Virus record (IMG/VR): IMGVR_UViG_3300034196_000151
Direction: 5' to 3' (one strand)
From: a virus
Lineage: Duplodnaviria > Heunggongvirae > Uroviricota > Caudoviricetes
Length of the DNA stretch: 64,000 nucleotides
In this document: positions 9,319-26,358 of the stretch, in pieces
Numbering within the stretch: position 1 is the first letter of the stretch
How the letters are laid out: every line of letters begins with the position of its first letter
Made by a program: the position numbers and the translations under genes
The notes under the pieces: generated by a model
Databases searched by the model: none
What the model was told of the DNA's origin: nothing
The model's input: the letters and a program-made list of their open reading frames with translations, nothing else

Positions 9319-9453
9319 TTACTCGGCGTCTTGATGGCGATTACGACGCTTGTCACGCCATTGACGGTCTTTCTTGTTGTGTTGGGCTTTCTCGTTGTCA
9401 CGTTTCTTTGCACCGCTGAAACGTTCTTGTGCTTCACCGAAAGAACCTTGCAT
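9319..9453 (-). CDS. 44-aa highly basic protein, copy 1 of 3
   Basis: MQGSFGEAQERFSGAKKRDNEKAQHNKKDRQWRDKRRNRHQDAE; SD AGGAGATA upstream; near-identical copies at 20074..20208 and 26224..26358. Confidence 0.55.
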   Translation of the reverse strand: MQGSFGEAQERFSGAKKRDNEKAQHNKKDRQWRDKRRNRHQDAE

Positions 9454-9535
9454 GTTGTATCTCCTAACCTTTGATTTGTTTGTGTTGTTTCGTTTTGATG
9501 GGATAATTATAACGAAATCACTCCCCACTGTAAAG
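9454..9535 (-). promoter_or_regulatory. type A promoter and leader (TATAAT-TATCCCATCAAAACGAAACA...AGGAGATA)
   Basis: Minus strand GTTATAATTATCCCATCAAAACGAAACAACACAAACAAATCAAAGGTTAGGAGATACAACATG; same leader at 20209-20270, 23397-23440, 38035-38075 and 39030-39060. Confidence 0.5.
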
Positions 9536-9580
9536 CACTTTTTTCATCATTTTTTAGTTTATTTCTATTACATTAATAAC

Positions 9581-9606
9581 AAAAAAGAGGCCGAAGCCCC
9601 TTTTTT
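9581..9606 (-). terminator. intrinsic terminator (UUCG loop, G-U wobble stem)
   Basis: aaaaaaGAGGCcgaaGCCCCtttttt. Confidence 0.55.
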
Positions 9607-9621
9607 AACCATCAACGGTTT

Positions 9622-10059
9622 TCAGGCCGCTTTGTATTCCTGAATATAAGTATAAAATTCACTATGGAACTGTGCCCATGTTAGCAAATCTTGCTCTACT
9701 GGCTCAATCAGGGAATTGGAAGCCCCCATGAAAGTAAGCATTTCGATTTCTTTTTTGAGTTCATCTTTTTGAAGTTCGTAAGCCTTAGTAAAGGCCAACA
9801 ACTCATCAGGTGTTACAACGGCTTCGCTGTCTGGCCGACCTTCCAACTGGCGAGTATATTTTGAAAAGATGGCGTTATAATTCCGCTCCAACGCATCATT
9901 CACCGCCGACAGTTTTTGAAATTCAGCCATTTTTTCCTTCGTCTGCTTTCCTTTGGCACGGCTCAACACGTAAAAGACCAACGTAATGTGGTTTTTTTTG
10001 CATTGATCACGAACCACCAAGCTCAGGTAACGCAGTTTTTCGTAGTAGTCAGCTAACAT
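9622..10059 (-). CDS. hypothetical protein
   Basis: ORF with ATG at 10059 preceded by GAGGA SD, downstream of a TATAAT at ~10090; the track's longer N-terminus overlaps the promoter. Confidence 0.5.
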   Translation of the reverse strand: MLADYYEKLRYLSLVVRDQCKKNHITLVFYVLSRAKGKQTKEKMAEFQKLSAVNDALERNYNAIFSKYTRQLEGRPDSEAVVTPDELLAFTKAYELQKDELKKEIEMLTFMGASNSLIEPVEQDLLTWAQFHSEFYTYIQEYKAA

Positions 10060-10118
10060 GGCGAATCCTCGGTTTGTTTGATGGCTTATTATAACATCAA
10101 GGCCAATCAAAAACAAGA

Positions 10119-10292
10119 TTAATTCAGGCGATCATTCTGGTATTCGTAAATGTCAGTGCTGCAACCATCCATACGGCCATGAACAAGCACGCGGTCTGAC
10201 ACAAAAGACTTCAACCAGATCCACTGACCATTAATCGTGCGTGGGAAAAGAGCAAAACGTTTTACTGGATTGGATTCTTCGTAGAGCATCAT
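10119..10292 (-). CDS. 57-aa hypothetical protein (not in ORF track)
   Basis: ATGATG start with AGAAGGA SD, TATAAT at ~10322, fills an otherwise empty 250-nt gap. Confidence 0.45.
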   Translation of the reverse strand: MMLYEESNPVKRFALFPRTINGQWIWLKSFVSDRVLVHGRMDGCSTDIYEYQNDRLN

Positions 10293-10372
10293 CGCTTAAT
10301 CCTTCTGTGTTAATAGAGGTGTATTATATCAAAAAATAAAAAAGAACAACAAAAAAGGGCCGTAGCCCTTAT

Positions 10373-10651
10373 TCAATTATCTTTAAAATAACATTGCGAA
10401 ACAGGAATCCGCATAGTAATGCCAGTATCAACTTCTTGAACTGTAGCAGAAATATCAGCATCATTAATGGCAAAGACCAAAATAACATTATCATGGTGGT
10501 ACGTTTCGAAAGTTCCTGAATAACAACTAACAGTTCGAGTTTTTTTACCTGAAGTGTTAATTGCTTGGTTAGTATTACTTTTCTCTTCGGCCTTACAACC
10601 AGCCGACACAGAAAGAGCGAGTGCAAGTGCAAGAACAAATGTCTTTTTCAT
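10373..10651 (-). CDS. lipoprotein (paralog of 45401..45706)
   Basis: MKKTFVLALALALSVSAGC lipobox; shared CYSG..TY.H.DV...SQC core with 45401..45706. Confidence 0.55.
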   Translation of the reverse strand: MKKTFVLALALALSVSAGCKAEEKSNTNQAINTSGKKTRTVSCYSGTFETYHHDNVILVFAINDADISATVQEVDTGITMRIPVSQCYFKDN

Positions 10652-10746
10652 GAAAACTCCTAATTAATATAAGTCACTTATTGTAGCAGGAAAGATTTAA
10701 TTATACAAACAAAAAGGGCCGAAGCCCCTTTTGAGTAATCTAGCAA

Positions 10747-11253
10747 TCAGGCCAGAACTGGTAGACCACGCAGGTCAATCGGGTCAAGGTCAGACAATTT
10801 AATGTCAACAATGTGAAGATTTGGATGCATGTCTCGAACCATGTCAGAAAAACTGCGAGGCATAACTTCTGCTTCGATTTCAGTCACCGCGTCAGCAAGA
10901 CGGCGGGCTTTGGTGCGAATGGCAATCAGCTCGTTGATGAGTTTCAGCTCATGGGCCGACGATGGCTTAGCTGGGCGGTTCAGTTCCAAATTGCTTTCAT
11001 GACGAAGGGTGTCGAGGTCTTTCTGTGCAGGGAACAGTTCTGCATGGAGAGCAACACCGGCTTCTGTCAGCGAAACACCATCATCATCACGGGACACCAG
11101 ACCTTTGCCTTTCAGGTTCAGCAGAACAGCGTTCACCTGAGAGAGTTTAACAGCTTCTGGGCCGTTAGGGATGTTGTTAACATTCACCGACGAAGTGCCG
11201 AGAGCAACAATGTTCACGATTACTGCGGTTTCGAGAGCGGTAACTTTGGTCAT
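10747..11253 (-). CDS. winged-helix (MarR-like) DNA-binding protein, higher GC than surroundings
   Basis: 168 aa; LLNLKGKGLVSRDDDGVSLTEAGV resembles a MarR wHTH recognition region; GC visibly higher (~48%) than the flanking ~38%. Confidence 0.5.
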   Translation of the reverse strand: MTKVTALETAVIVNIVALGTSSVNVNNIPNGPEAVKLSQVNAVLLNLKGKGLVSRDDDGVSLTEAGVALHAELFPAQKDLDTLRHESNLELNRPAKPSSAHELKLINELIAIRTKARRLADAVTEIEAEVMPRSFSDMVRDMHPNLHIVDIKLSDLDPIDLRGLPVLA

Positions 11254-11353
11254 GGTGTTTCTCCGATGTTTGATTGGGTATCTCGTTTTGATGTGTCTAT
11301 CATATCAAAAAACACATTTACTGGCAAGCATTATATCATCAAAAAACACATTT

Positions 11354-11560
11354 TTATTTGATGAATGGGGCAATCGCCTTTTCGTATTCTTTGTTTGACT
11401 TGTATAAATCATAAGCGAAAAATATCAAACAGAACGAGATGAACCCCCAAAAAACCATTTGATCAGAAAATTCACTTCGGACAGGTTCTTGGACAAAGTT
11501 GTAGGCACAAATACCCATCATCAGTAAACACAACAGAATTTGAGCGATAAGACTTCTCAT
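11354..11560 (-). CDS. small two-TM membrane protein
   Basis: ATG at 11560 with GGTGGGAA SD; ATGA overlap with upstream gene. Confidence 0.45.
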   Translation of the reverse strand: MRSLIAQILLCLLMMGICAYNFVQEPVRSEFSDQMVFWGFISFCLIFFAYDLYKSNKEYEKAIAPFIK

Positions 11561-11820
11561 GGTTCCCACCGTTTAACCAAATCCTCAGCAACAAGTTCTT
11601 TGTTCTGTGGTGTCCAGCAAATACAAACCATCGTGGCAATGACCCCACCAATCAACGAGATAATCATCAATAACGCCGAAATGTGAAACCAAACTGGCAC
11701 ATCAAGCGTTACATGATAAGCCATATGAGCTGTATAGCGACCACTTTGGAAAAAGTTGGCTGTCAACAACGCAAAAATAATGGCAATCAAACCAGAATTG
11801 AACCTAGTGATATGTTTCAT
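11557..11820 (-). CDS. small two-TM membrane protein
   Basis: 87-aa ORF, two hydrophobic helices. Confidence 0.45.
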   Translation of the reverse strand: MKHITRFNSGLIAIIFALLTANFFQSGRYTAHMAYHVTLDVPVWFHISALLMIISLIGGVIATMVCICWTPQNKELVAEDLVKRWEP

Positions 11821-11967
11821 TTGATATCCTCTAAATGGAAGCTAATCTTATCAAAAATACGATTTTTATGCAAGCTTATCTATTGTGGTCGAATAAATAA
11901 TAATCAAAAATATAACTTGAAAAAATATCAACATTTGTTATATTATGTGGAACAATGGAGGAATGCT

Positions 11968-12378
11968 ATGAGTTATGTAAGTGACAATTTGATGGATGGT
12001 GAGAAAATAGAATATGAAGCCAGTTTAAGCAACTGGGGTTTCTTTTGGCAGATTTTCTTTGGAATACTACTTATTCCAGTCATTGTAGGTATTGTAATTT
12101 TAATCGTCGTCTACATTCAGAAAAAGTGTACAGAATTGGCTGTAACCAACAAAAGATTGATTGCTAAAAAAGGATTTATTCAGAGAGACACGGTTGAAAT
12201 AAACTTGAAAAAAGTTGAAAGTATACAAGTAAATCAAGGTTTGATGGGTAGGATGTTCAACTTTGGAACAATTATTGTTTCCGGTACCGGTCATGGTAAT
12301 GCACCCATAAAATACATTGCTGATCCACTTGAATTTAGAAGACGACTTTCAATGGCCCAAGATAAAATGGACGAATAA
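11968..12378 (+). CDS. bacterial PH-domain (YdbS/YdbT-like) membrane protein, plus strand
   Basis: GGAGGAA SD before ATG; TM helix followed by a TNKRLIAKKGF...VESIQVNQGLMGRMFNFGTIIV bPH_2-like pattern; bidirectional terminator at 12381-12411. Confidence 0.5.
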   Translation: MSYVSDNLMDGEKIEYEASLSNWGFFWQIFFGILLIPVIVGIVILIVVYIQKKCTELAVTNKRLIAKKGFIQRDTVEINLKKVESIQVNQGLMGRMFNFGTIIVSGTGHGNAPIKYIADPLEFRRRLSMAQDKMDE

Positions 12379-12380
12379 AC

Positions 12381-12411
12381 AAAAGAAGACTGTTCAAACA
12401 GTCTTTTTTTT
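12381..12411. terminator. bidirectional terminator
   Basis: aaaagaAGACTGTTcaaAACAGTCTtttttttt. Confidence 0.6.
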
Positions 12412-12419
12412 CGCCTACA

Positions 12420-12902
12420 TTATTTGTCATAACGATAATAGAATGTATAATAACCTGAACCACTTGCACCGACATGGCAACCATATTTGCGACCATCAAT
12501 AGGATCAGCAGGAATAGTGGAAACTGTGTCAAATTTTAGAGAATCATAATTAGCAATGATTTGTTTACAAACATCCAGTGAAAGTAATGATGAGTCTTGT
12601 ATTTTAACTAAGGATTCGTCCGCATCAATTACAAAATCAACACTTTCATAGTTAGGAACTTGTGTTAAATAGGCAGCATCTTTAAGTTTACTCACATTAT
12701 CAACACTCATGCCAGTCATGGAAACACCTTCATTTTTTGCAAATAGAGCCGCCGTAGCAATAGTATTTGCAGTGTTTAATAAGTAAGCAGTTTTTGTATA
12801 AATAGAATTGTTATTATAGGCATAAAAACCATAAGCAATTGTTGCAACTGATAAAGCAGCCATAAGAGCAATAGAAATGATCGAGATAATAAGTGAAAAC
12901 AT
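12420..12902 (-). CDS. pilin-like N-terminally anchored protein
   Basis: ACGGAGAATAC SD before ATG at 12902; N-terminus MFSLIISIISIALMAALSVATIAYG resembles a mature pilin helix. Confidence 0.5.
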   Translation of the reverse strand: MFSLIISIISIALMAALSVATIAYGFYAYNNNSIYTKTAYLLNTANTIATAALFAKNEGVSMTGMSVDNVSKLKDAAYLTQVPNYESVDFVIDADESLVKIQDSSLLSLDVCKQIIANYDSLKFDTVSTIPADPIDGRKYGCHVGASGSGYYTFYYRYDK

Positions 12903-13095
12903 GTATTCTCCGTTATTAATATTAACTTCCAAGTTAGTCTAACACCAAACTCTTAATTAATAATTTACCTCGGAGTACAACGATGTCAATTGTTTTTTAT
13001 ACAAGTTAATATATCAAAGTGTCATCATCTATATATAAAAATAAATATATAAACAAAAAAGACAGCCTTAGCTGTCTTCTTTTTAATCCTGCTGA

Positions 13096-13404
13096 TTACT
13101 TCCAGAGCTTCAACATGCTACCAGCCATATCTGCACTAATGGGTTCCATCTCATAATGCCGACCAGTCTGTTTATTGATGATTTCCTTGAGTCGAACAAC
13201 TTCTTTATCTGCGTACTCTTTGGTGGTAAACAGCATGGCCTGCAGAGTTTTTTCGTTTTCTTTAAAGCCAGTGTCAGCACTGACCATTGGTTTATTGAAA
13301 ATCGGAATGGTTCCATCACTTTGAGAATCAGCTTTAAAACCACCCCAGAACATGTAACCAAGGGCATTTTTTGGATCGAGGTCTTTAACGGCGATTACAT
13401 ACAT
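13096..13404 (-). CDS. hypothetical protein
   Basis: 102-aa ORF. Confidence 0.5.
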   Translation of the reverse strand: MYVIAVKDLDPKNALGYMFWGGFKADSQSDGTIPIFNKPMVSADTGFKENEKTLQAMLFTTKEYADKEVVRLKEIINKQTGRHYEMEPISADMAGSMLKLWK

Positions 13405-13511
13405 GTGTAAATTCCTTGTGTGGTTTTTTAAAAGACCGTGCGGCTCTTTTTCATAGAGTGATTATAGCGAAAAACAGTTTTTCTGTAAAGCTGTTTTTGA
13501 GAAAAGACGAT

Positions 13512-13625
13512 TAAAGATTCTTTTTGAACTGGGCACGGGAATAGAACTCGATAGCCGCAAAGACACCAATAGCCAAAAAACCGACAATAACGATTGTGTG
13601 CATGCTTTCAACCATTTCTTTCATG
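13512..13625 (-). CDS. 37-aa hydrophobic peptide (not in ORF track)
   Basis: ATG with GGTGA SD, TATAAT at ~13650; single TM helix IVIVGFLAIGVFAAI. Confidence 0.35.
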
Positions 13626-13723
13626 ATAATTCACCGCTGTTATGGAATGTTGATTATATCAAAATTAATGAATGACATCAACAAAAAGACACCAGAAGGT
13701 GTCTTTATGTTTAACTATTCGTG

Positions 13724-14479
13724 TTACAAAATGGTGACATTGGCCCGAGTTTTGACGTGTTCAATAAAACCTTGAATACCATCAGTAATGAACGCATTGA
13801 AATGAAATTCAAAGTCGTTCAAGCCTGCTTTCTGTGCGGCGTCAAAGTATTCATACATTTGCGGCACGTTCATACCTGTGGTGTAAACATAAACAGTTTT
13901 GCCACCTTTTGCTTTGAATTCGGCAAAAACCTGAACCAGAGCATCTTTGGAGTATCCACCCAAGTTCAAGATGTAAGAGAATTTCGGATCGCGTTCACCC
14001 AAATATTGACGTGTGTGTTCTTCCAGATAAGGGTCATTTTCAAGGTTAATGTATTGGGTCTTGTCGTTGATGACGTGGGTAGGTTTCCAGCCCATATCAA
14101 CAGGTTCTTCGCTTTCAATTTCCCACTCTGGAAGCATGAAGCAATAGCCACCCGCTGAGTTGATCAGCACTCGATTACCATCAAGAATTTCTGCCAGCAT
14201 ATTGGAAAAACGTTTGTTGATAATGCCATCCAATTCGTAAATTGGGTTTTTACCATGAAGTTTGCAGTGAGCAACCGTTGCCGCAAGGATACCAGCAGCC
14301 GGTGTGTTTCGTGGAAGATCGCCCCAGCTTTCAACTTCGGCTTTTTCACGAATCAAATGGCTGACCTGTGCGACGACTTGATTGGAAGTGTGTTCCATAA
14401 AAGCCATCAAATCATCTGGGGTTTCGATCAAAATCCACTGACCTTCAACGGGTGCGTTCTTGATGGTAACTCGATTCAT
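13724..14479 (-). CDS. hypothetical protein (251 aa)
   Basis: One of the larger ORFs; no motif I can assign by eye. Confidence 0.55.
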   Translation of the reverse strand: MNRVTIKNAPVEGQWILIETPDDLMAFMEHTSNQVVAQVSHLIREKAEVESWGDLPRNTPAAGILAATVAHCKLHGKNPIYELDGIINKRFSNMLAEILDGNRVLINSAGGYCFMLPEWEIESEEPVDMGWKPTHVINDKTQYINLENDPYLEEHTRQYLGERDPKFSYILNLGGYSKDALVQVFAEFKAKGGKTVYVYTTGMNVPQMYEYFDAAQKAGLNDFEFHFNAFITDGIQGFIEHVKTRANVTIL

Positions 14480-14581
14480 GATATTTAATCCATTTGTGTT
14501 TTAGTGAAGCCATTATAGCAAAAGCCCCGAACAAAAACAAGATTATTCAGGGTTTAGATGGTTTTTCTTAACAAGAGACTA

Positions 14582-15325
14582 TCAAGAAATGATGTTTTTT
14601 TGTTTCAATTCCTTGTAAAACAAGTCGCGTGCGTAGGCTGGAATATTCTTGGTGTTGGTGTTCAGCAAGAACGTGCGTTCAGTCAACAACGCTTTCGATT
14701 TAGCCATAGCTTCGGCCAATTGTTCACGTTGTTTAATCAAACGAGAGTCGCCACGGTTTGCAATTTCGGTTGCCCACAAGAGTTCACGAGCAGCATCAAC
14801 CGCCTGATTAGCAGCTTTAAACCGTGCCATCACGTCTTCGACTTCTTGAATGCGTTCAGCTTTAATTGAATTCAAAGCTGAGAGTGTAAGTGCCGAGCTA
14901 ACAACAATATCGAATTCTTTAACAAAAGCGGCCAAGAATTCTTCTTTATCAGTGATACCCAACGCCAGAACAGCTTTCATTTTTGGTTCGATTTCTGCAA
15001 CTGAGTATTCACGCGAATATTCAGCAGACAGATCTTTGGAAGGCTTAATGGAAGCACGAACAGTCGGTTCGCCTTCTTTGAAATTGAAGCAAAACGAGAA
15101 GCTACGGTCAAAACGCTGATGGCCTTTTTCATTGTGGTGAATACCACCACGAATGTTGAAGATAGCCATGAAGTCAAACGTCACAGAAGCGGCCACATAC
15201 ACCTGATCATTGGCGTAAGTATGACGTTCTTCTTTACGGTTCAATTCAAGATAAGAAATGAACGACAGTGCTTTAAACAAAGTCAATTCTGGTTTCAGGA
15301 CGGCCATCGGGGTCATGTTTTTCAA
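14582..15325 (-). CDS. hypothetical protein (~247 aa, probable TTG start)
   Basis: AGGAGA SD 7 nt before TTG at 15325; the track's GTG start at 15361 overlaps the TATAAT at ~15351. Confidence 0.5.
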   Translation of the reverse strand: MKNMTPMAVLKPELTLFKALSFISYLELNRKEERHTYANDQVYVAASVTFDFMAIFNIRGGIHHNEKGHQRFDRSFSFCFNFKEGEPTVRASIKPSKDLSAEYSREYSVAEIEPKMKAVLALGITDKEEFLAAFVKEFDIVVSSALTLSALNSIKAERIQEVEDVMARFKAANQAVDAARELLWATEIANRGDSRLIKQREQLAEAMAKSKALLTERTFLLNTNTKNIPAYARDLFYKELKQKNIIS

Positions 15326-15435
15326 GGGTATATCTCCTAAGAAAGTAGATTGATTATACACAAAAATAAGTTTTTCTACAACCTTTTTTAGAGAATAAAA
15401 AAACCTTCCGAAGAAGGTCTTTTTCTTGTTATCAA

Positions 15436-15787
15436 CTAACGGTTAAGCTGGTCAATAACGTATTGGTCTTCAACATGGTTCATGATGTCATCAATATCAC
15501 GCAGACCAGAAGCAAAGGCTTCATGAATACGCTTCATATCAACGATAGCCTGACCATAAGCCGCATGGAAGGATTCAGCACGGGCTACATCGTCATACTC
15601 ACTGTAACCACCCATCGAGTTGGTAATAGTGACTTCGATGCCTTGTTTGTTGATGATAACGGCCCGAACTTTGATAGCCTCGTCAGACGAATAGCCATTT
15701 GGCTTAAACGTAATTACAAGCCATTGGCGGTCTGGCTGCATAATAGAACTTTTACTGATTTCAAATTTACGCTCGTAACCAACCATG
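15436..15787 (-). CDS. hypothetical protein
   Basis: ORF; internal ATG chosen to clear the upstream promoter; terminator aaaaaccttccgaagaaggtc at 15398-15425. Confidence 0.45.
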
Positions 15788-15851
15788 ACTGTACTCCACT
15801 TCAAATTAAGAAAACGATTATAGCAAAAATGAGATTTACTGTCCACAACAA

Positions 15852-16148
15852 TTAGTGGATAGTGATGCTCTTGCGATGAATGACCAACAAACATTCAGCC
15901 ATGTCTTTAAGTAAAGGGTTGCTGATGTCATAATAAGCATGGATATAGGCCAACAATTCCACCAAAGACACTTCGCCCGTAAAAGGCTTATGAGCCGTTG
16001 CCAGTGAATGCTGGTTGACCAAAGATGAAAATGTGGTGATTGCCTCGTTAAGAACAGGCAGTTGAACAGGATCACACTCAAATGTGCCATCCATAATAGA
16101 ACCATTAACAAACAACAAATGACCGCTAGAAGCTATTGAAGTATTCAT
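15852..16148 (-). CDS. hypothetical protein
   Basis: ATG at 16148 with AAGAGGA SD; TATAAT at ~16222. Confidence 0.45.
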   Translation of the reverse strand: MNTSIASSGHLLFVNGSIMDGTFECDPVQLPVLNEAITTFSSLVNQHSLATAHKPFTGEVSLVELLAYIHAYYDISNPLLKDMAECLLVIHRKSITIH

Positions 16149-16251
16149 GTTAGATCCTCTTTGAGTGAGTAAATCAGTTCTGAAAACCATACTTGCTTGT
16201 TTGTTTTACTAGGGTCATTATACACAAAAACAAGTTTTTACACAAGCTCTT

Positions 16252-16527
16252 TTACATCTCAAAATTGAATCGGCTGTTCTTTTTGGGCTTGGGTAGCTTG
16301 TTTTTTTTCTGTCTTGCGGGTTTGCGGTCATCTTTCAAGTAATCTATATCACCTAACAAATCCACACCAGTAGTTTCAAAAACTTTTGCTGAATGGGTGA
16401 TGTTCGCCAGCCCATAACCACGGGAAATGGCCCGACTGGTTTCCTTCATGTCTGAGTTGATTTGCCAGATCATGGCGGCACAAAATAAGACAAAAAGAGC
16501 AATACCGATGAAGCCTAAAATACTCAT
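16252..16527 (-). CDS. small membrane protein
   Basis: 91 aa; N-terminal TM helix; basic C-terminus. Confidence 0.5.
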   Translation of the reverse strand: MSILGFIGIALFVLFCAAMIWQINSDMKETSRAISRGYGLANITHSAKVFETTGVDLLGDIDYLKDDRKPARQKKNKLPKPKKNSRFNFEM

Positions 16528-16997
16528 ACGACCTCCGTTTCTTGGTTGACTGGAATGACAGCAGCCGTCACAACTTTGATGAACTCATCAATCGGCATGA
16601 TATACTGTGAATAATCCTTGGAATGACCATACCAACCAACTTGGGTATAAGCGTGCTTGTTTCGCATGGTTTTGAGCACGTCTCGGGCGATTTGACGAAC
16701 AACACGGCTCTTTTCCTTCGGTAACACCAAGCCAACATGGAAACGGATAATAGAACGCAACGCAGATTGATCCATGCCGTAATAGGTGGTGTCAGATGAT
16801 TGGTAGAACAAGCTATCATCATCACTGTCATGGCTTGATGATTCGAGGTAGGTGATCGAAAATAGGTTTTTTTCAAGATCCATGCGGACAATCGCTTTGT
16901 CGAAGTCATAAATCGTGGCGAAAGGATACTGATGCTTGGCAAAGTGAGCCGAAGCTACCGCAATGGATTTGACATTTTTGTTGATACGCATGATCAA
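16524..16997 (-). CDS. hypothetical protein
   Basis: 157-aa ORF. Confidence 0.5.
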   Translation of the reverse strand: MIMRINKNVKSIAVASAHFAKHQYPFATIYDFDKAIVRMDLEKNLFSITYLESSSHDSDDDSLFYQSSDTTYYGMDQSALRSIIRFHVGLVLPKEKSRVVRQIARDVLKTMRNKHAYTQVGWYGHSKDYSQYIMPIDEFIKVVTAAVIPVNQETEVV

Positions 16998-18681: not shown

Positions 18682-18759
18682 TTTAAGTTACCTTGTTTTG
18701 TTTGGGAAGGTGTTCATTATATCAAAAAATGAAGCTATCATCAATCATTATTTTGGAAA

Positions 18760-18966: not shown

Positions 18967-19005
18967 GTTTCACCTGATTTCATCAATATGGTTATATATG
19001 TGGTT

Positions 19006-19034
19006 ATTATACCAAAAACAAGAATTTTAGGCAA
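19006..19034 (-). promoter_or_regulatory. sigma70-type promoter TTGCCT-17-TGGTATAAT (cassette copy 2)
   Basis: Minus strand TTGCCTAAAATTCTTGTTTTTGGTATAAT. Confidence 0.6.
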
Positions 19035-19058
19035 CAAAAAAGAGATCATAAGATCTCT
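19035..19058 (-). terminator. intrinsic terminator, part of the duplicated cassette
   Basis: aaaaaAGAGATCataaGATCTCTtt. Confidence 0.55.
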
Positions 19059-19203
19059 TTCTGTTATTGCTTTCCATTAGGTTAATAAGGCGTTTCGATT
19101 CCACCTTATGCCTTTTGGAACTACTTAGAAGGAAAACATCACCGACTAAAACCCAAGGAGGACGTTAATAATACAACAAATCGCTCAGTGAGTCAACTCG
19201 TTT

Positions 19204-19563
19204 TTATTGATGTTTCAAATAAATTCGATACAAGTCAACAAAATTGATGTCAAAAGTGTACTCGGGATAATGTGTTTCATAAAAATCTTGAACATCATCC
19301 AAATATGTTTGTGCCCTTGCATAAACCTCATTGGCAAACGCAATCATATCCTTAGCAGAAGCATCAGGAAACAAGACAAACGCAATTTCATAATGTGGTG
19401 GTTCAGAAACAACCTCATCAGGAATGCAAGAGCCTGTTGAAGTGACGACAAACGACTTTTTGTCACTGCTGGCTCGATAATTGAACAAGGCTTTAAATGC
19501 CAAAAAGTCTGCTGAATTTTCATCGACTTCAATTTCTTTCACTTTTTTCTTGGTCATATTCAT
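19204..19563 (-). CDS. hypothetical protein
   Basis: 119-aa ORF followed by a ~140-nt 3' UTR. Confidence 0.5.
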   Translation of the reverse strand: MNMTKKKVKEIEVDENSADFLAFKALFNYRASSDKKSFVVTSTGSCIPDEVVSEPPHYEIAFVLFPDASAKDMIAFANEVYARAQTYLDDVQDFYETHYPEYTFDINFVDLYRIYLKHQ

Positions 19564-19577
19564 TTCTCCCTATGAAA

Positions 19578-19958
19578 CTAATCCGACACTACGCGGTATA
19601 AAATAATTTGGCGACCTTCAACCTCAAAGGTATGGTCGCAAGCACAAGTTTTTTTGTATGTCCAAACCCATTCATGTTCTGATTCATCACAAGCCATGTA
19701 TCCACGACCACATTTTGGACAGAAGATATCAGCTTCTGAATTGTGAACCATGCCAGTTTTGTATTCTTTGATATAAACTTCCGCTTCTTCCACAGTGTCA
19801 AAGAACGTAAAGCCGTGGGCGTAATCAATGGTTGTTTGTAATGAGAAACCTTTACCCGGCTCTGTCAGCGAGTCATAAAACTTCTGGTTGTCGTCAAGCT
19901 TGTAAATTCGATGATCTTCTTTACTGAAGCTTTCTTTAAAGACAATAATCTGTTTCAT
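19578..19958 (-). CDS. zinc-ribbon protein
   Basis: 126 aa; CPKCG...CACDH four-cysteine pattern. Confidence 0.5.
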   Translation of the reverse strand: MKQIIVFKESFSKEDHRIYKLDDNQKFYDSLTEPGKGFSLQTTIDYAHGFTFFDTVEEAEVYIKEYKTGMVHNSEADIFCPKCGRGYMACDESEHEWVWTYKKTCACDHTFEVEGRQIILYRVVSD

Positions 19959-20073
19959 AAATCACCCATATTGGTTTGATACACAAGTATAACAAAAAAT
20001 AGCTTTTTAAGCAAGATTTTTTTAATGAACGAAAAAAAAGGCACCCTACTGGATGCCTTTCTTCTGGTAGCAG

Positions 20074-20208
20074 TTACTCTGCGTCTTGATGTCGGTTACG
20101 ACGACGATTGCGGAACTCGTTGTCTTTTTTGTGAAATTTTGCCTTTTCGTTATCTTTTTTCTTGCCGCCGCGAAAACGTTCTGTTGCGTCACCGAAAGAG
20201 CCTTGCAT
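20074..20208 (-). CDS. 44-aa highly basic protein, copy 2 of 3
   Basis: MQGSFGDATERFRGGKKKDNEKAKFHKKDNEFRNRRRNRHQDAE; below the ORF-track size cut-off. Confidence 0.55.
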   Translation of the reverse strand: MQGSFGDATERFRGGKKKDNEKAKFHKKDNEFRNRRRNRHQDAE

Positions 20209-20317
20209 TTTGTATCTCCTAACATTTAATTTGATTGTTTGTTTCGTTTTGATGGGATAAGTATATCAAGAAGCGTTTTATTGGTCAATCACTTTTTTCA
20301 AAAAACTTCAAAACAAC

Positions 20318-20455
20318 TTAACCCACTACTCGTTCATATTTAACATGATATTCAACCATCGACGCCACCATGAAAAGCAACATACAAGCCCCCATCACAC
20401 CGACAAGCCACAACGGGAAGGCTTCGACTGAGAACCATTCAAATGGTTTACACAT
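20318..20455 (-). CDS. 45-aa membrane peptide (not in ORF track)
   Basis: ATG overlaps the stop of 20455..20643 (TGATG); hydrophobic FPLWLVGVMGACMLLFMVASM. Confidence 0.35.
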   Translation of the reverse strand: MCKPFEWFSVEAFPLWLVGVMGACMLLFMVASMVEYHVKYERVVG

Positions 20456-20643
20456 CACAGGTCACCATCAGTAGACAGCGAAGGCTCATCTTTATTCATC
20501 CACGATTCGATTTCCGCTTTGGATTCCCACTTAGCATGGCCTTCACAGTCCACCAACCGGACTTTCTCATCAGTTTGGTCAATAATGCGAAACCATGCAC
20601 CAAGACCATTGACATAAATTTGAGCATTTTGGGTGAAAATCAT
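20455..20643 (-). CDS. hypothetical protein
   Basis: 62-aa ORF. Confidence 0.45.
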   Translation of the reverse strand: MIFTQNAQIYVNGLGAWFRIIDQTDEKVRLVDCEGHAKWESKAEIESWMNKDEPSLSTDGDL

Positions 20644-20701
20644 GGCAGTCTCTCCATTTTGGGAAATTGATTATACCATAAATCTTGTTTTTAAATCAAG
20701 C

Positions 20702-21040
20702 TTACTGACGTTTATTCTTGAAATCGGCCAAGTCTTTATTAAATCGCTCAGACATTGCTTTGATGCCAAGAATATAGACGCCATTCAAGATGTTGTATTC
20801 CTCAATAACATCCGACATTGAGCTATGCAAAATACGCTCACGCAAGAGTTTATAAACAGCAAACTGATTGGTGCCAAATTTTACATGGATTTCATAAGCA
20901 ACTTGAAAACAAGCTACTTTAAAGTCACCGGGTTTATCTTCAACCAAACGACCAGACATATCGGAAAAAGTAGCTTCCAACTCATTGGCAGCATCATTAA
21001 CAAACACCATATCAGACGGGGACACTGTAATTTCGATCAT
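20702..21040 (-). CDS. hypothetical protein
   Basis: 112-aa ORF. Confidence 0.5.
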   Translation of the reverse strand: MIEITVSPSDMVFVNDAANELEATFSDMSGRLVEDKPGDFKVACFQVAYEIHVKFGTNQFAVYKLLRERILHSSMSDVIEEYNILNGVYILGIKAMSERFNKDLADFKNKRQ

Positions 21041-21119
21041 GATAACCTCAAATGTGGTAAATGTGTTGTTTAAGGAGGTATTTTATCACTTTTTCCTTAG
21101 TTTTTCAACAAATATACAA

Positions 21120-21734
21120 TTAGATTACATACATTTTCAAGAGTTCGACATAGGAACTGTCTGTTTTCACAAAATGTTTAAACTGAGAAAAATAGTCATC
21201 AATTGGTAAAATTTCTTTTAATTTGGTATGTTTCATCAAATGGTGGAATACATAAAAGGCCGCACTATTACCATCATTCAATTTAAACTGATTACTCAGT
21301 TCAGCAGAATACAATAAATAGTTAACTTCATCCGATCCATCCGATGCAACAGATTGATTCAGTGTTATTTTATCAAGGCTATGACCAATAAATTGGAACC
21401 ATAAATTATTATTATTACTATAAACGTTTTTATGATTCAATTTGATTGAACTATTGATAGCATTTAAATCAATAGAATAAGGAATTCTTCTCTTGCCAGT
21501 TTTTATTGAAATTGGAACTCGATGATGAACCTCTTTATTAACTGATGAATAGCTGTCAAAAAATCTTTCATCACCATTAGGCATGGTAACAACACAATAA
21601 CAGCCAGCCTCATCCCAAACCATCTGCATAGGTTTAAAGACAGCACTCACATGGCCTTGAAAGAAAAAGGTTTCCTGTGCCAGAAAAGCTTTCGCAGACG
21701 CCAAAACATGGTCAGGAATAATGAGGTCAGTCAT
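21120..21734 (-). CDS. hypothetical protein (AT-rich)
   Basis: 204-aa ORF, low GC. Confidence 0.5.
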   Translation of the reverse strand: MTDLIIPDHVLASAKAFLAQETFFFQGHVSAVFKPMQMVWDEAGCYCVVTMPNGDERFFDSYSSVNKEVHHRVPISIKTGKRRIPYSIDLNAINSSIKLNHKNVYSNNNNLWFQFIGHSLDKITLNQSVASDGSDEVNYLLYSAELSNQFKLNDGNSAAFYVFHHLMKHTKLKEILPIDDYFSQFKHFVKTDSSYVELLKMYVI

Positions 21735-21840
21735 GATAAAATCTCTGAAATTATGCTTGAATTATAACACATGATTTTAAACAAAAGCAAAAAATCCGAC
21801 CATCAGGCCGGATTATTGTTATCTGATTGTTTGGTGTTGA

Positions 21841-22320
21841 CTATTGTTCTATTTTATAAATGTTGTAGGCTTCAAATGATCTGAAAGCTCCTTGCTTTTT
21901 AAAAAACTTGAAATATTTTACAGCAATTTTATTGCTGGCCTTATTGCTTTCATGAGCAATATAAATAAGGTTTTTATACTTGTTGAGATAGTGTTCAACC
22001 ACTTGACTAGCATAACCATTGCCACGTTCTTTTTTAGCAATATAAATCATGCCAAGGTTATGATAAGTCAAATCTTTTTCAATACCCAACCGAAGACTGA
22101 GCTGAAAAGTAACCTCACTGGTGTTAACAATCCCTACAATTTTACCATCAACTTTGATAACAGTCACAGGTTGACGGGAAATAATTGAGCGAACTTCTTT
22201 AAAGGTCAATCCAGAAGGATCTGAATCTGCCGTATATTTATTCCGCATAGAGTGAAAAACCAGTTTTACAACATCTGGATTTTCGGCTGGGTTGGCATAC
22301 GGCTCGATAGAAATCATGAT
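21841..22320 (-). CDS. GNAT-family N-acetyltransferase
   Basis: Start at MISIEPY; motif IAKKERGNGYASQVVEHYL matches the GNAT motif A (R-x-x-G-x-G/A). Confidence 0.55.
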   Translation of the reverse strand: MMISIEPYANPAENPDVVKLVFHSMRNKYTADSDPSGLTFKEVRSIISRQPVTVIKVDGKIVGIVNTSEVTFQLSLRLGIEKDLTYHNLGMIYIAKKERGNGYASQVVEHYLNKYKNLIYIAHESNKASNKIAVKYFKFFKKQGAFRSFEAYNIYKIEQ

Positions 22321-22418
22321 AAACCTGTTATTTGGTTGATGACCTATTATATCAAAAAACAAAAGGATGGGCAATAGAAAACCGCCAAAGTGGCGGCTTA
22401 ATAACAACAAAACACAGA

Positions 22419-22616
22419 TTAATCATTGGCGTCTTGAGCATCTTCAAAGGATTCGTAATAGCCATCAGCCTCAAAAAAATAACAGGCTTGAAGGAAACGA
22501 TCCTGATCGGGATAGTTGTAACTACTGATCTCAGCATAGCCCATACTGCCATCAGCCCGCTTACGATAGTAGGTCTTGCGAATTTCTTCGTGCATTAACT
22601 CTTTGTGCATGAACAT
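22419..22616 (-). CDS. small acidic protein
   Basis: 65 aa, D/E-rich C-terminus; TATAAT at ~22646. Confidence 0.45.
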   Translation of the reverse strand: MFMHKELMHEEIRKTYYRKRADGSMGYAEISSYNYPDQDRFLQACYFFEADGYYESFEDAQDAND

Positions 22617-22807
22617 ATCCTCACGATTGATTAATATGCTAATTATACAACAATTATTTTTTTTTTAACAACAAAAAACCCCTATTGCGAGGGGTTTTTC
22701 TTATCATCTTAATTAAATTCTCTGATTTAGGTTAAGGTTATGGCTGCATCGGTAGTTCACCTCTGGCACTCGATTAGATTATCTAGTGGTTAATGTTATT
22801 TTCAATC

Positions 22808-22884
22808 TGGTGGGACTTATAGGACTTGAACCTATGACCTGCCGATTATGAGTCGGACGCTCTAACCAACTGAGCTAAAGTCCC
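22808..22884 (-). tRNA. tRNA-Met/Ile (anticodon CAU)
   Basis: Minus-strand GGGACTTTAGCTCAGTTGGTTAGAGCGTCCGACTCATAATCGGCAGGTCATAGGTTCAAGTCCTATAAGTCCCACCA: 7-bp acceptor, D and T arms, anticodon loop CTCATAA, encoded CCA. Confidence 0.85.
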
Positions 22885-23173
22885 GTGGTTGGTGGCCTAG
22901 AAACCTGTCTAAACCACCCAGTATCCTCAATTATATATTCTCTATTTTAAAATATAAATACCTAGCAATCTATTTCAAGCGACTTCGAACTCGTTTATTG
23001 AAGCCCCTGCTTTGGATTTAGTTGTCTACCAAAGGTCTTAGGTTCTGCCTGAATTCGCAGGATGCCAACCTACGAAAATCTCTGTTAGTCCTCTTTCTGG
23101 TTCTAGTTAAGAAGGCTCTATTTTAAGCCTTGTCATCATCGTTTGCAACTGTTTTTTTACATTTATTTAAATT

Positions 23174-23258
23174 TGGTGCCCGGTGCCGGACTCGAACCGG
23201 CACTCCTTGCGGAAAGGGATTTTAAGTCCCTCGTGTCTACCAATTTCACCAACCGGGC
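23174..23258 (-). tRNA. tRNA-Leu (anticodon UAA), type II with long variable arm
   Basis: Minus-strand GCCCGGTTGGTGAAATTGGTAGACACGAGGGACTTAAAATCCCTTTCCGCAAGGAGTGCCGGTTCGAGTCCGGCACCGGGCACCA; loop CTTAAAA; encoded CCA. Confidence 0.85.
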
Positions 23259-23552
23259 TTAATATGATATGGACTACTCTATTTATATCTGCACCGAGTA
23301 GTGTTCCATACTTACAAGCTATATTGGCAACCGAAGTTGTTGTTCCAAAACAAGCCACTTGTAAGAAGTGCTGGTTTATTCTGGCAAGATGTTTGTTTCT
23401 CCGTTTCGTCTTGATGGGGTAATTATAGAGAAAATCGCTTTGAAGGTCAAGCACTTTTTTAGCTTATTTTTCAAATACTTAAATCAAAATTATGTTGACA
23501 TAACAACGAAAAAGACCTGCTGCAGTAGGTCTTGATGACATAAAATCATGTT

Positions 23553-24464
23553 TTAGTGATAGACCAACTCACCGATGGATTTTTTGGTCACTCGGGCATT
23601 TGCAGGATTGCCAAAGATATGAATGCCACCAATCCCTGTTGCAGATCCAACAATAGATTTTAAGGCCGTCACTTTTACCTTGCCGATACCGGACGAATTG
23701 AGTGTTACGTTATCCGCTTTCAATCCTTTCGCGTCAACTGAGCCGGTGCCAGAAGTATTTAAATCAAGGTTTTCACAAGTGCCATCAAAAGTCGATGAAC
23801 CCACTGAATCTTGTTTAATTTTGATGGATTGGGAAGCTTCACCCTCGTATTCAAAAGATCCTGTGCCGCTGATGGTAAAGATAGCGTTCAGAACACGACC
23901 AGAGATAAAACAATCCCCAGTGCTGCATTTATTTACAGTGGCTTCATCTGCATTGATTTTGGCGTTAAAGGAGCCAGTGCCAGAAACATCAAGCAAGATG
24001 GTGTCAAAGTCACCATTTAAATCACATTTACCTGTGCCCGATTTTTTGATGTTGATTTTTTCTTGTTTAAAGTGTTGAATATCAACTTTACCTGAACCCT
24101 TGTGAGAAATGGACTCTAACAGAGGTGCAGTAATGAAAAGCTTCATAACTGGGTTAATAAGAACATCCTTTTCAACCTTGATTTTAAAACAGCCTTCAAC
24201 AGTTTCCACTTTTAGAAATGGAATGAGTTTTTCATTGATTTCAAGTTGAATCGTAAGCTTTTCACCTTGTTGGATGACAGTTTCAAAAGGGCCACTAATA
24301 CTGACCGAAGAGAAATCTTTGAATTGAACTGGATGGTTGACAACAGGACCGTAGTCTTCTTTCGGGATTTTACCACCAACAATGGAACCATTAATGATTG
24401 TCACATCATTGAAGCTATTTTTTTTCCCAAAAAGAGATTCCATGACTTCTTTGAATACGGACAT
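23553..24464 (-). CDS. DUF2807/GIN-like beta-helix protein (adhesin-head-like repeats)
   Basis: 303 aa with reiterated SGTGS/SGIGK/TGIGG repeats every ~20 aa. Confidence 0.55.
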   Translation of the reverse strand: MSVFKEVMESLFGKKNSFNDVTIINGSIVGGKIPKEDYGPVVNHPVQFKDFSSVSISGPFETVIQQGEKLTIQLEINEKLIPFLKVETVEGCFKIKVEKDVLINPVMKLFITAPLLESISHKGSGKVDIQHFKQEKINIKKSGTGKCDLNGDFDTILLDVSGTGSFNAKINADEATVNKCSTGDCFISGRVLNAIFTISGTGSFEYEGEASQSIKIKQDSVGSSTFDGTCENLDLNTSGTGSVDAKGLKADNVTLNSSGIGKVKVTALKSIVGSATGIGGIHIFGNPANARVTKKSIGELVYH

Positions 24465-24631
24465 AATGTGTCTCCATGTAAATGATACTCCATTATATCA
24501 AAAAACAGTTTTTAAAACAACAGTTTTTCATTATTTTATGGTTGTTTAGAATATTTGTGAAAACGTACAAACAAAAACCCCAAGAATGGGGCTTTTTGTT
24601 ATTCCTAATATGATCGAAGTTAGCAGAGATC

Positions 24632-24802
24632 TTATTCAATAATAGGAATAGGCTCACATTCAACGTAGTTGTAATGACCTGATGTCTCAAGTTCCTTTTT
24701 CAAGGCTTCTGCCTTTACTTCGTCAAGAAAAACACCCTTAACCTGTTTATCGGCGGTTGTCGGATAATACTGATCCCACGCATAAACCATATAACCTTGC
24801 AT
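24632..24802 (-). CDS. 56-aa hypothetical protein (not in ORF track)
   Basis: GGAGATG SD 5 nt before ATG; terminator caaaaaccccaagaatggggc at 24578-24600. Confidence 0.4.
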   Translation of the reverse strand: MQGYMVYAWDQYYPTTADKQVKGVFLDEVKAEALKKELETSGHYNYVECEPIPIIE

Positions 24803-24833
24803 AATCACATCTCCAAAGAAAGGATTTCGTGTT

Positions 24834-25115
24834 TTAAACTTCCGAGAAAGTCAATTTGAACAAAGAATAAGGAACTACCAGTGTTTCGCCGTTTTTCACG
24901 ACAACAAAATCACCAACTTCAATACGTTGCCAGCCCACATTGGTTTTTACGCCAAAAAACGCATTTTTAGGGGTGCCCATCATATCACCGGGAACTTTGG
25001 CAATTTTGTTTTCATAGTCCATATAGCATTGGCGAATGTGATCAGCCGCTTCTGGGTCAGTGCCATATTGAGCCGCTTGGCAGGTGATGTTGTCGTTACT
25101 GATATACGTTTTCAT
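24834..25115 (-). CDS. hypothetical protein
   Basis: 93-aa ORF. Confidence 0.5.
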   Translation of the reverse strand: MKTYISNDNITCQAAQYGTDPEAADHIRQCYMDYENKIAKVPGDMMGTPKNAFFGVKTNVGWQRIEVGDFVVVKNGETLVVPYSLFKLTFSEV

Positions 25116-25133
25116 AAGTTTTAATTCCTATTG

Positions 25134-25523
25134 TTAACCAATGGTGAAAATACAAGCCAATTTTTTATCGGGTTCGATTTCGTTATCCCAAATGCTTTCA
25201 TTGTCGAAATGTTTGACATTTTTCTTTTTCAACAAGGCATGCAGTTCTGTAAAATTGAACTGATAAGGCTTATCCAGTTCTGGTTCAACACAAAACCGTT
25301 CACCATCCAAATGATAGATGAAGAAATAACCGGGCAAAACAGCCACAAAGGTAATCGTCCAAACACGCTCATCGCCCATAGGCTCATCACAATGAGGGTC
25401 AACCTCAGACATGTAGGCATATTCGACGCCATTCACGGTCAAGCGTTCTGTATAGGCAGAAGCCTTACGTTCTTTACAGCGTTCTACAATGGCATTAACG
25501 ATTGTCTGATTGTTCGTCTTCAT
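25134..25523 (-). CDS. hypothetical protein
   Basis: 129-aa ORF. Confidence 0.5.
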   Translation of the reverse strand: MKTNNQTIVNAIVERCKERKASAYTERLTVNGVEYAYMSEVDPHCDEPMGDERVWTITFVAVLPGYFFIYHLDGERFCVEPELDKPYQFNFTELHALLKKKNVKHFDNESIWDNEIEPDKKLACIFTIG

Positions 25524-25607
25524 GGTGAGATACCAAGGCTACTGATTAGGGTAATTATATCAATAAAGCCTTGGCGAGTAAAGAAAAATCGTTTTTGATG
25601 GTGATTT

Positions 25608-25925
25608 TTAAATTAATTGCATGAGAATGTTTTCCATGTGGTCGCAAAAACCTATCGGGTAATGATCAAAACGCCCAGATTCATAGATAATGATTTTCTG
25701 GTCATTAAATCGAATACCGATATCGGATGGCAATAAATCCTTCTTAAAAACAGCAAACTGGAAACAAGCCACAACTAGTGAACTCGAGGTGTAAATCAAG
25801 TGTTGTTGCTGACTGGATACAATATCCGCCACAAATTCGGCTACCAGACCATCAGCGGTCGGAACACCATGAACAGGATCATAAACCAGAAGAATACGTG
25901 TTTCTTGTTGGAGAGTAGACATCAT
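25608..25925 (-). CDS. hypothetical protein
   Basis: 105-aa ORF. Confidence 0.5.
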   Translation of the reverse strand: MMSTLQQETRILLVYDPVHGVPTADGLVAEFVADIVSSQQQHLIYTSSSLVVACFQFAVFKKDLLPSDIGIRFNDQKIIIYESGRFDHYPIGFCDHMENILMQLI

Positions 25926-25938
25926 AACACCTCAAAAG

Positions 25939-26175
25939 TTAATCGCTCATCAGATCTTCAACGCGATCCAATGTTTTAAACATGTCGTAAAGTTGAGTGC
26001 AGTAGCAGACAAGCAAGGCTTCTACCACCAATACAACGCTTGCGAGAGCCGCTTCCATTTTATCACCAAACCAAAGCTGATAAACAACGAAACAAGCGGT
26101 TGCCATCATCAAAAGAATGATAGCAGAAACGGCCAAGAGCTTATTTGAAATTTTCATGTTAAAAACCTCGTTCAA
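25939..26175 (-). CDS. small two-TM membrane protein
   Basis: 78 aa, two hydrophobic helices. Confidence 0.45.
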   Translation of the reverse strand: MNEVFNMKISNKLLAVSAIILLMMATACFVVYQLWFGDKMEAALASVVLVVEALLVCYCTQLYDMFKTLDRVEDLMSD

Positions 26176-26223
26176 AGAACTTGATCAAAAAAGCAGTAGA
26201 CTGGCTACTGCTTTGCGGTTTGG

Positions 26224-26358
26224 TTACTCTGCGTCTTGATGACGGTTGCGGCGTTTATCACGCCATTGACGGTCTTTTTTATTGTGCTGGGCTTTCTCAC
26301 TGTCGCGTTTCTTGGCACCGCTGAAACGTTCTTGTGCATCACCGAAAGAACCTTGCAT
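26224..26358 (-). CDS. 44-aa highly basic protein, copy 3 of 3
   Basis: MQGSFGDAQERFSGAKKRDSEKAQHNKKDRQWRDKRRNRHQDAE; different (type B) leader upstream. Confidence 0.55.
   Translation of the reverse strand: MQGSFGDAQERFSGAKKRDSEKAQHNKKDRQWRDKRRNRHQDAE

Follow-up and report, generated by a model that had tools for sequence, protein, structure and literature searches.

Among described systems, those closest to the subject of this report are the arginine-rich-motif (ARM) peptides (lambda and P22 N, HK022 Nun, HIV Rev and Tat), the alpha/beta-type small acid-soluble spore proteins (SASPs) of Bacillus and Clostridium, the 'protamine-like protein' Tpr of Escherichia coli, and the small ribosomal or ribosome-associated proteins (bL34, bS21, Sra/bS22, RMF and the ribosomal proteins of huge phages, which encode translation components; PMC7162821). 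The subject itself is a gene for a basic 44-aa protein, present in three copies on the minus strand of IMG/VR virus record IMGVR_UViG_3300034196_000151, a stretch of 64,000 nucleotides assigned to the Caudoviricetes and referred to at its full length as the window. The three open reading frames (ORFs) are almost certainly real, selected, multi-copy protein genes; their product may, as a tentative reading of sequence and context, be an abundant arginine-rich RNA-binding micro-protein working with the tRNA/translation module of the element that carries it. Since every sequence-based membership test failed, the protein is a member of none of the families listed above, and by analogy it would work most like an ARM peptide.

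With ARM peptides it shares a short basic segment with clustered arginines, an asparagine and a nearby aromatic residue, for which a helix is expected in the bound state, and with those of phages it shares a probable phage origin in a genome with terminators after most genes. The hallmarks of the class, a short, helical, arginine-rich segment with few hydrophobic residues, are all found in its [F/W]R.[K/R]R[R/Q]NRH motif and AlphaFold2 helix. Unlike ARM peptides, to which it has no sequence homology, the protein is 44 aa in its whole length without a part that binds NusA or RNA polymerase (RNAP), its gene is multi-copy, and it is a predicted RNA binder with no known nut-like site; the adjacent tRNAs and a leader hairpin (leader B, below) are candidate targets. 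In organization the genes recall the alpha/beta-type SASP genes of Bacillus, with dispersed monocistronic paralogs that each have a promoter, a strong ribosome-binding site and a terminator, an arrangement yielding in SASPs a very abundant small nucleic-acid-binding product. However, SASPs measure 60–75 aa, have motifs of their own and bind double-stranded DNA in spores, whereas the 44-aa genes are linked to tRNA genes, and neither Pfam nor PDB profile searches gave a SASP match. Tpr (29 aa, from the tyrT-tyrV tRNA operon), the only tRNA-operon micro-protein found for comparison, is likewise a tiny arginine-rich ORF co-transcribed with tRNAs, but it is a single-copy gene placed downstream of them, is unrelated in sequence and lacks a known function. 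The 44-aa protein has the size and charge of small ribosomal proteins, and like them it is linked to translation genes, is predicted to have no hydrophobic core and may be autogenously controlled through its leader; small ribosomal proteins, however, normally do not occur in 3–6 diverged copies, and searches for them and for hibernation factors (bL34, bL36, bS21, Sra, RMF) were negative in Pfam and with the PDB profile (E<=10). A presumed resemblance to KGG-repeat hydrophilins (E. coli YciG, B. subtilis GsiB) extends to small size, marked hydrophilicity and a superficial G-S-(x)-F-[AG]-[ED]-D/A-x-E-[KR] stretch; tested against E. coli YciG, membership in this family (PF10685) was rejected (hhalign of alignment A4, probability 0.13%, 1 aligned column).

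On translation of the window, each of the three intervals comprises 44 codons and a stop:

9319..9453, minus strand: copy 1 coding sequence, translated, 44 aa, S-type (...RFSGAKKRD...QWRDKRRNRHQDAE)
20074..20208, minus strand: copy 2 coding sequence, translated, 44 aa, R-type (...RFRGGKKKD...EFRNRRRNRHQDAE)
26224..26358, minus strand: copy 3 coding sequence, translated, 44 aa, S-type

The encoded proteins are, in order, MQGSFGEAQERFSGAKKRDNEKAQHNKKDRQWRDKRRNRHQDAE, MQGSFGDATERFRGGKKKDNEKAKFHKKDNEFRNRRRNRHQDAE and MQGSFGDAQERFSGAKKRDSEKAQHNKKDRQWRDKRRNRHQDAE. Translation confirms the minus-strand positions and residues given for these ORFs in the original prediction, an earlier reading of the same DNA. 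Its description of the copies as near-identical (85–95%) fits copies 1 and 3, which agree at 95% of protein and 89% of DNA positions, but not copy 2, which is 70% identical to either of them in protein and ~71% in DNA. Similarly, its remark that two copies fall below the 60-aa cut-off of the ORF list is correct for copies 2 and 3, which are missing there, while copy 1 is listed just as a 69-aa GTG-extended ORF (9319–9528). A tblastn search of the window with low-complexity masking off matched the three copies at E values of 1e-19 to 1e-28 and gave no fourth, the next match reaching only E ~0.3. Other paralog pairs of the window are distant, mostly at 24–38% identity, and none is three-fold. 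An exact match to the copy 1 protein (P0001) is present in JGI metagenomes.

The pattern of substitution between the copies is that of protein-coding genes. Between copies 1 and 3 there are 13 synonymous and 2 non-synonymous differences, corresponding to a synonymous divergence (dS) of ~0.96, a non-synonymous divergence (dN) of 0.019 and a dN/dS of 0.02; for copies 1 and 2 dN/dS is 0.08, and for copies 2 and 3 dS is saturated, beyond estimation. Compared with their own positional orthologs, copies 2 and 3 give a dN/dS of 0.06–0.23, within an overall range of 0.02–0.3 that covers pairs with estimable dS, the window's own estimable pairs lying below 0.1. This synonymous excess is accompanied by conservation of frame and length (41–46 aa) in ~60 relatives, and the case that the original prediction had named against itself, a non-coding repeat whose frame is not kept in relatives, was checked and is excluded by the frame, length and motifs retained there. 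With a dS of about 1 in even the most similar pair, neither duplication nor gene conversion can have been recent; the window copies are old paralogs. Positional orthologs were identified for copy 2 (L007:14067, L009:14911, L039:13379; L numbers denote sampled loci of relatives) and for copy 3 (L007:8001, L009:8040, L039:20871), in both cases embedded in syntenic DNA that is 70–88% identical. The positional ortholog of copy 1 (L022:7387) has the same promoter type and shares with it a convergent secreted protein (207/208 aa, 47% identical). The earlier view of a triplication under dosage selection is not supported in that wording: given this divergence and the positional orthologs at all three positions, the three-fold state is not recent, and the copies carry two leader types.

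Several copies per genome is nevertheless a conserved, selected state. Counting in relatives, as had been proposed at the outset, gave 2–6 copies per related contig: two each in L007/L016 and L009 within the sampled 16–20 kb, two in a 498-kb contig, three in L039 (an 835-kb contig), four in a 678-kb contig, five over 275 kb of a 1.86-Mb contig with the same small-orphan-gene architecture, and six over 150 kb of an IMG/VR viral contig 290 kb long. Copies inside one genome are diverged paralogs.

The protein family is previously undescribed, although its general kind, a small basic phage protein, is familiar. A word-indexed search of 5.8 billion proteins returned 34 family clusters, and when 1.84 billion representatives were scanned exhaustively with HMMER, 29 true clusters came out together with one repeat-protein false positive; the ~60 homologs all come from metagenomes. 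Members are 41–46 aa long, or else bear a false N-terminal extension ('YTYPIKTKQH') that is the translated conserved leader. The consensus reads MQGS[F/Y/H].D..E[R/K]F.(G).K.KD ... [D/E]R.[F/W]R.[K/R]R[R/Q]NRH, with a nearly invariant N-terminal stretch of 12 residues; in a 35-sequence alignment M1, Q2, G3, S4, F5, A8, E10, F12, D19, R33, R36 and R39 are invariant. At 5.3 kDa, with a pI of 10.3, a net charge of +5 to +6 and a GRAVY value of -2.4, the protein contains 30% Lys+Arg and 18% acidic residues, just 4–5 hydrophobic residues, and three conserved aromatics. AlphaFold2 predicts a single helix over residues 5–37 (mean pLDDT 78, rising to 88–90 over residues 21–40). None of the three copies matched a family in Pfam-A, NCBIfam or PHROGs at E<=10, nor did a family profile built from 37 sequences match any PDB chain sequence at that threshold.

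The genomic context links the family to tRNA genes. Of 41 distinct contexts, 10 have a same-strand tRNA gene that begins 7–32 nt past the stop codon, with the terminator lying beyond the tRNA or tRNAs. These contexts span at least six different paralog types. A tRNA-Arg(UCU) follows two family proteins that are mutually just ~50% identical, an atypical tRNA with a 6-nt anticodon loop follows two others, and further linked genes are a GA-anticodon oddity and a tRNA-Leu(UAA); at L046 and L050 the family ORF heads arrays of 2–6 tRNAs. All adjacent tRNAs that were checked (L021, L023, L034, L046, L050) pass the Rfam tRNA threshold, with 40–75 bits. At the observed density of 46 tRNAs in 492 kb of loci (0.09 per kb), a same-strand start within 35 nt is expected by chance for ~0.2% of genes, and for six independent cases among ~27 sequence types a rough binomial estimate is ~1e-11. 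The adjacency is far beyond chance. In the window itself, copies 3 and 2 bracket a tRNA-Leu/tRNA-Met pair, and two RNA ligases lie downstream.

As a separate observation, atypical tRNA genes were recorded at L023:12884-12953 (minus strand), L034:6194-6263 (plus strand), L016:7164-7237 (plus strand) and L046:10310-10384 (minus strand), for which ARAGORN reports a 6-nt anticodon loop with a two-base 'anticodon' (aa or ga). Three of them were scanned with Rfam and passed its tRNA threshold at 40–44 bits, that of L016 being an ARAGORN call only, and several stand directly after a copy of the 44-aa gene.

Each copy is flanked by its own transcription signals, as originally predicted, in the form of a sigma-70-like site and a hairpin followed by a U-tract:

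9506..9534, minus strand: promoter-like site of copy 1, TTTACA-17-TATAAT, 11/12 matches
20260..20288, minus strand: promoter-like site of copy 2, TTGACC-17-TATACT with an upstream TG extension, 10/12 matches
26452..26480, minus strand: promoter-like site of copy 3, TTGTTT-17-TATACT with TG at -15/-14 (TGaTATACT), read directly from sequence
9281..9310, minus strand: intrinsic terminator of copy 1, -17.1 kcal/mol, z -4.8
20032..20057, minus strand: intrinsic terminator of copy 2, GGCAUCC-AGUA-GGGUGCC then U8, -20.5 kcal/mol, z -5.2
26187..26214, minus strand: intrinsic terminator of copy 3, -12.7 kcal/mol, z -4.5

For each copy, none of 200 shuffles was as stable as the terminator hairpin with its U-tract, and the hairpin of copy 2 is also kept in relatives L001, L007 and L009. 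The possession of a promoter and a terminator is, however, the general architecture of this part of the window and not peculiar to the 44-aa genes: between 8 and 27.5 kb, promoter-like sites number 79 where 55 would be expected, and terminator-like sites 35 where 14 would be. The Shine–Dalgarno (SD) sites, described before as strong throughout, deserve that description in copies 1 and 2, where AGGAGAT (UAGGAGAU) ranks 8–9 among the 95 minus-strand ORFs of the window and the initiation region is among the least structured, but not in copy 3, where AAGGA is average (rank 50 of 95).

Between promoter and gene, two types of leader are found:

9454..9505, minus strand: leader A of copy 1, a CA-rich 5' untranslated region (5' UTR; UAUCCCAUCAAAACGAAACAACACAAACAAAUCAAAGGUUAGGAGAUACAAC), unstructured
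20209..20259, minus strand: leader A of copy 2, same leader type as copy 1
26382..26447, minus strand: leader B of copy 3, a 5'-UTR hairpin, GCAG-CAAGGGU ... 21-nt loop ... AUCCUUG-UGA-UUGC

Carrying two different leader types, the copies are probably regulated differently. Leader A, which from the -10 box onward reads UAUCCCAUCAAAACGAAACAACACAAnCAAA..GGUUAGGAGAUACAAM-AUG, precedes copies 1 and 2 and most relatives. Its minimum free energy (-1.4 kcal/mol) is no lower than that of shuffles. Its 22-nt core occurs twice in the window, against an expected 0.01, and its mean pairwise identity over 18 distinct instances is 79%, higher than that of the protein (70%) and of third codon positions (53%). 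Its initial ~15 nt (CAUCAAAACGAAnCA) also stand after the -10 box of other genes in relatives and so belong to a promoter class, the remainder and the SD site being gene-specific. In the window (8000–27500) and in related loci, this promoter class consists of a -35 TTGnnn, 17 nt, TATAMT and ~5 nt, followed by CATCAAAACGAA or CATCGAAGC, and it precedes several different genes, for example the 'MTQVTALERAVIRN' family of ~147 aa (window region 47731–48174).

Leader B is shared by copy 3 and its positional orthologs and begins ~7 nt past the -10 box, with stems GCRG-CAAGGGG / CCCCUUG-(3 nt)-YUGC around a conserved 21-nt loop. Its 13 distinct instances stand ahead of at least eight different, unrelated genes, and the promoter arrangement of copy 3 precedes every one of them. 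In addition to copy 3, the window holds a second instance, and those located in relatives are:

58897–58962, minus strand: second leader B of the window, ahead of a lipoprotein-like gene (58534–58872)
L001:1914-1979, 3159-3224 and 8463-8528: leader B instances in a relative
L013:6962-7027 and 7922-7987: leader B instances in a relative
L023:313-378: leader B instance in a relative
L025:3087-3152 and 5515-5580: leader B instances in a relative
L030:3443-3507: leader B instance in a relative

Compensatory changes occur at 5 of 11 base pairs, and 95% of cells are paired compared with ~56% in slid controls, values that none of 500 shuffles attained. A covariance model scores the hairpin of copy 3 at 75 bits; over 324 kb of loci it detects 18 instances, of which the window accounts for two. 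Rfam recognized only the two tRNAs of the window at gathering score and nothing at E<=1 in 26200–26500 or 58850–59010. Leader B is accordingly put forward as a candidate new cis-regulatory or mRNA-stabilizing RNA motif.

All members of the family come from one lineage of very large phage-like elements. Its carriers are IMG/VR viral contigs of 64–290 kb, JGI and ENA contigs of 254, 498, 678 and 835 kb, and four independent contigs of 1.84–1.92 Mb. Scans of 185,579 GTDB species-representative genomes with peptide and DNA patterns gave no confirmed match; a tblastn search with the protein and a megablast search with 12 kb of the window both gave nothing in 50,697 phage records, even at E<=10, a weak negative since low-complexity filtering has probably hidden much of the query. 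The syntenic or otherwise related large contigs are:

Ga0370506_000001: 1,917,244 bp
Ga0308158_10000001: 1,859,102 bp
Ga0308423_1259934: 1,851,360 bp
ENA contig: 1,843,594 bp
Ga0370511_0000001: 834,842 bp
Ga0308157_10000028: 677,834 bp
Ga0308163_10000024: 497,968 bp

The largest published phage genome found measures 735 kb (PMC7162821). Giant phages, prophages in small chromosomes and another kind of replicon are all candidates for the 1.84–1.92-Mb contigs. Every sampled region shares the window's architecture of small, mostly unidirectional orphan genes ~100 bp apart, and among 119 ORFs just 18 Pfam families were matched, including thymidine kinase, dCMP deaminase, RNase T, HNH, NUDIX, GNAT and TnpB. 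The window itself encodes two T4-type RNA ligases, a TnpB-like protein, DUF2807, an SPFH protein, tRNA-Met and tRNA-Leu. PHROGs gave no match for 10 large window ORFs and one family, of unknown function, for 10 ORFs of an IMG/VR relative. No phage structural genes were seen in the window or in the sampled regions of relatives. A phage nature is plausible, since the relatives include IMG/VR viral contigs and one RNA ligase is closest to that of a jumbo phage, and a huge phage is the most economical reading of the carrier. In the 100–150 kb chunk of that closest cultured phage, Ralstonia phage RsoM2USA, all genes are deposited as 'hypothetical protein', and just replication and nucleotide-metabolism genes are found there.

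Further features of the element are recorded here in their own right. The RNA ligases are diverged T4 Rnl1-type paralogs (46139–47281 and 48229–49356, both minus strand) with a mutual identity of 26%, the better-matching one, at 48229–49356, being 43% identical to its closest relative in RsoM2USA. Relatives additionally carry Tpt1 (RNA 2'-phosphotransferase) and a metallophosphatase, which together with the ligases suggest that an RNA-repair module lies close to the tRNA genes. The interval 61260–63032 (minus strand) encodes a 590-aa protein with a TNB domain of the Cas12f/TnpB type, and a look-up of TnpB found one additional place, the syntenic 835-kb contig. At 18421–18732 (plus strand) a 103-codon ORF is probably the remnant of a PAS-domain chemoreceptor gene; its DNA agrees at 91% with the 3' part of the gene for a 438-aa PAS-domain methyl-accepting chemotaxis protein. 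In the 1.85-Mb relative the 438-aa gene is inserted at this very place (L016:17940-19256), and L039 has a TnpB gene there; the site appears to be an insertion hot spot. The chemoreceptor gene of L007/L016 was considered as a boundary of the element and rejected, since synteny with the window resumes beyond it, making it an insertion inside the element. Also rejected was a conserved downstream partner of the 44-aa gene, the '82-aa neighbor' of several loci comprising two unrelated families.

How the protein acts can be addressed only with graded confidence. The earlier guess that it binds a nucleic acid, the ribosome or a host factor was too broad, and the linkage to tRNA operons favors its RNA/translation end. 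In the reading preferred here, which is held tentatively and at somewhat less than even confidence, the protein would be made in large amounts from several loci under different regulatory leaders, and its arginine-rich helix would bind RNA within the element's own translation module. The likeliest partners would be the element's tRNAs or pre-tRNAs, which could be stabilized, chaperoned or shielded, or the ribosome, and translation may be controlled autogenously through the conserved, gene-specific part of leader A, comparable to the control in ribosomal-protein operons and T4 gene 32. Several observations weigh against such a role. Searches of Pfam, PHROGs, NCBIfam, PDB and the large protein collections found no homology to RNA-binding, ribosomal or tRNA-related proteins, none of the window's three copies is directly followed by a tRNA, and the tRNA genes could simply ride on a strong promoter, which would leave the function open. 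Moreover, the predicted 44-residue mixed-charge helix could equally bind DNA or protein, and the conservation of leader A is explained in part by its promoter class. An extended version, in which the protein is a dedicated RNA-binding cofactor of a self-contained translation/tRNA system in an undescribed giant (0.3 to possibly 1.9 Mb) phage-like lineage, with 3–6 paralogs of which some are transcribed with tRNAs, and binds tRNAs, pre-tRNAs or the ribosome so as to protect them from host tRNA-targeting defenses or bias translation to the element, is speculative and on present evidence improbable.

Of the alternatives to an RNA-binding role in translation, a DNA-coating or DNA-condensing protein akin to protamines or SASPs survives best, while still being judged unlikely. 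Such a protein would neutralize or shield a very large genome, for packaging or against host nucleases, with multiple copies providing stoichiometric amounts, as would suit the net positive charge, the three conserved aromatics, the several monocistronic copies with strong signals, and carriers of unusual size (contigs of 0.29–1.9 Mb). Yet so modest a net charge, combined with so many acidic residues, is far from protamine-like, the genes lie among early-looking sigma-70-type units and tRNA operons with no structural module near, and the Pfam, PHROGs, NCBIfam and PDB searches found no homology to SASPs, HU or histone-like proteins.

A take-over or anti-defense micro-protein that inhibits or modulates a host protein, for example one of a tRNA-targeting defense, with its invariant N-terminus docking on the host factor, must be considered a poor prospect. 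The near-invariance of the first 12 residues is what a specific protein contact would lead one to expect, and the region resembles an early accessory arm rich in small orphan genes. Anti-defense genes do occur in phage tRNA regions, as in the case of T5 tRNA-Tyr with Rad (bioRxiv 10.1101/2023.03.15.532788). However, anti-defense and take-over genes are usually single-copy and fast-evolving, in contrast to the 2–6 paralogs seen here with strong purifying selection over a long divergence, and nothing in the analysis identified a target.

Quite doubtful is an arginine-rich regulator of the element's own mRNAs, binding the leader B hairpin or its own leader A and controlling termination or translation of a regulon like lambda N-boxB or an autogenous repressor. 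An aromatic residue followed by R.[KR]RRNRH, as in the C-terminal motif of the family, resembles arginine-rich motifs, a covarying hairpin with a conserved loop stands at the 5' end of at least eight genes including copy 3, and a terminator ends nearly every gene in the region. A regulator, on the other hand, rarely needs 3–6 strongly expressed copies, no segment resembles the NusA- and RNAP-binding regions of N, and the co-occurrence of hairpin and protein is known from the sampled loci only. That the ORFs are non-functional, the copies being a non-coding repeat or the plus-strand ORFs of 45–65 codons lying antisense to all three the true genes, is effectively refuted by the substitution pattern, which is overwhelmingly synonymous in the minus-strand frame, by the retention of start, stop, length and motifs in relatives down to ~40% identity, and by the antisense products of copies 1 and 3 (9334–9474 and 26239–26376), which are 66% identical as against 95% for the sense products, marking the minus-strand frame as the selected one.

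Micro-proteins of fewer than 50 residues are under-annotated, and the present family offers unusually clear evidence of function in its purifying selection, its conserved multi-copy state, a leader conserved beyond synonymous sites and a recurrent transcriptional fusion to tRNA genes. It also provides a handle on an otherwise opaque genome, in the form of a marker gene, a promoter class and two conserved leader elements. A DNA-coating function, if it proved to be the true one, would have a bearing on the handling of genomes of this size. The carrier element may prove more remarkable than the 44-aa gene. Should binding to tRNA or the ribosome be true, the protein would be a new component of the toolkit by which huge phages take over translation, and in the extended version given above a new class of viral translation factor.

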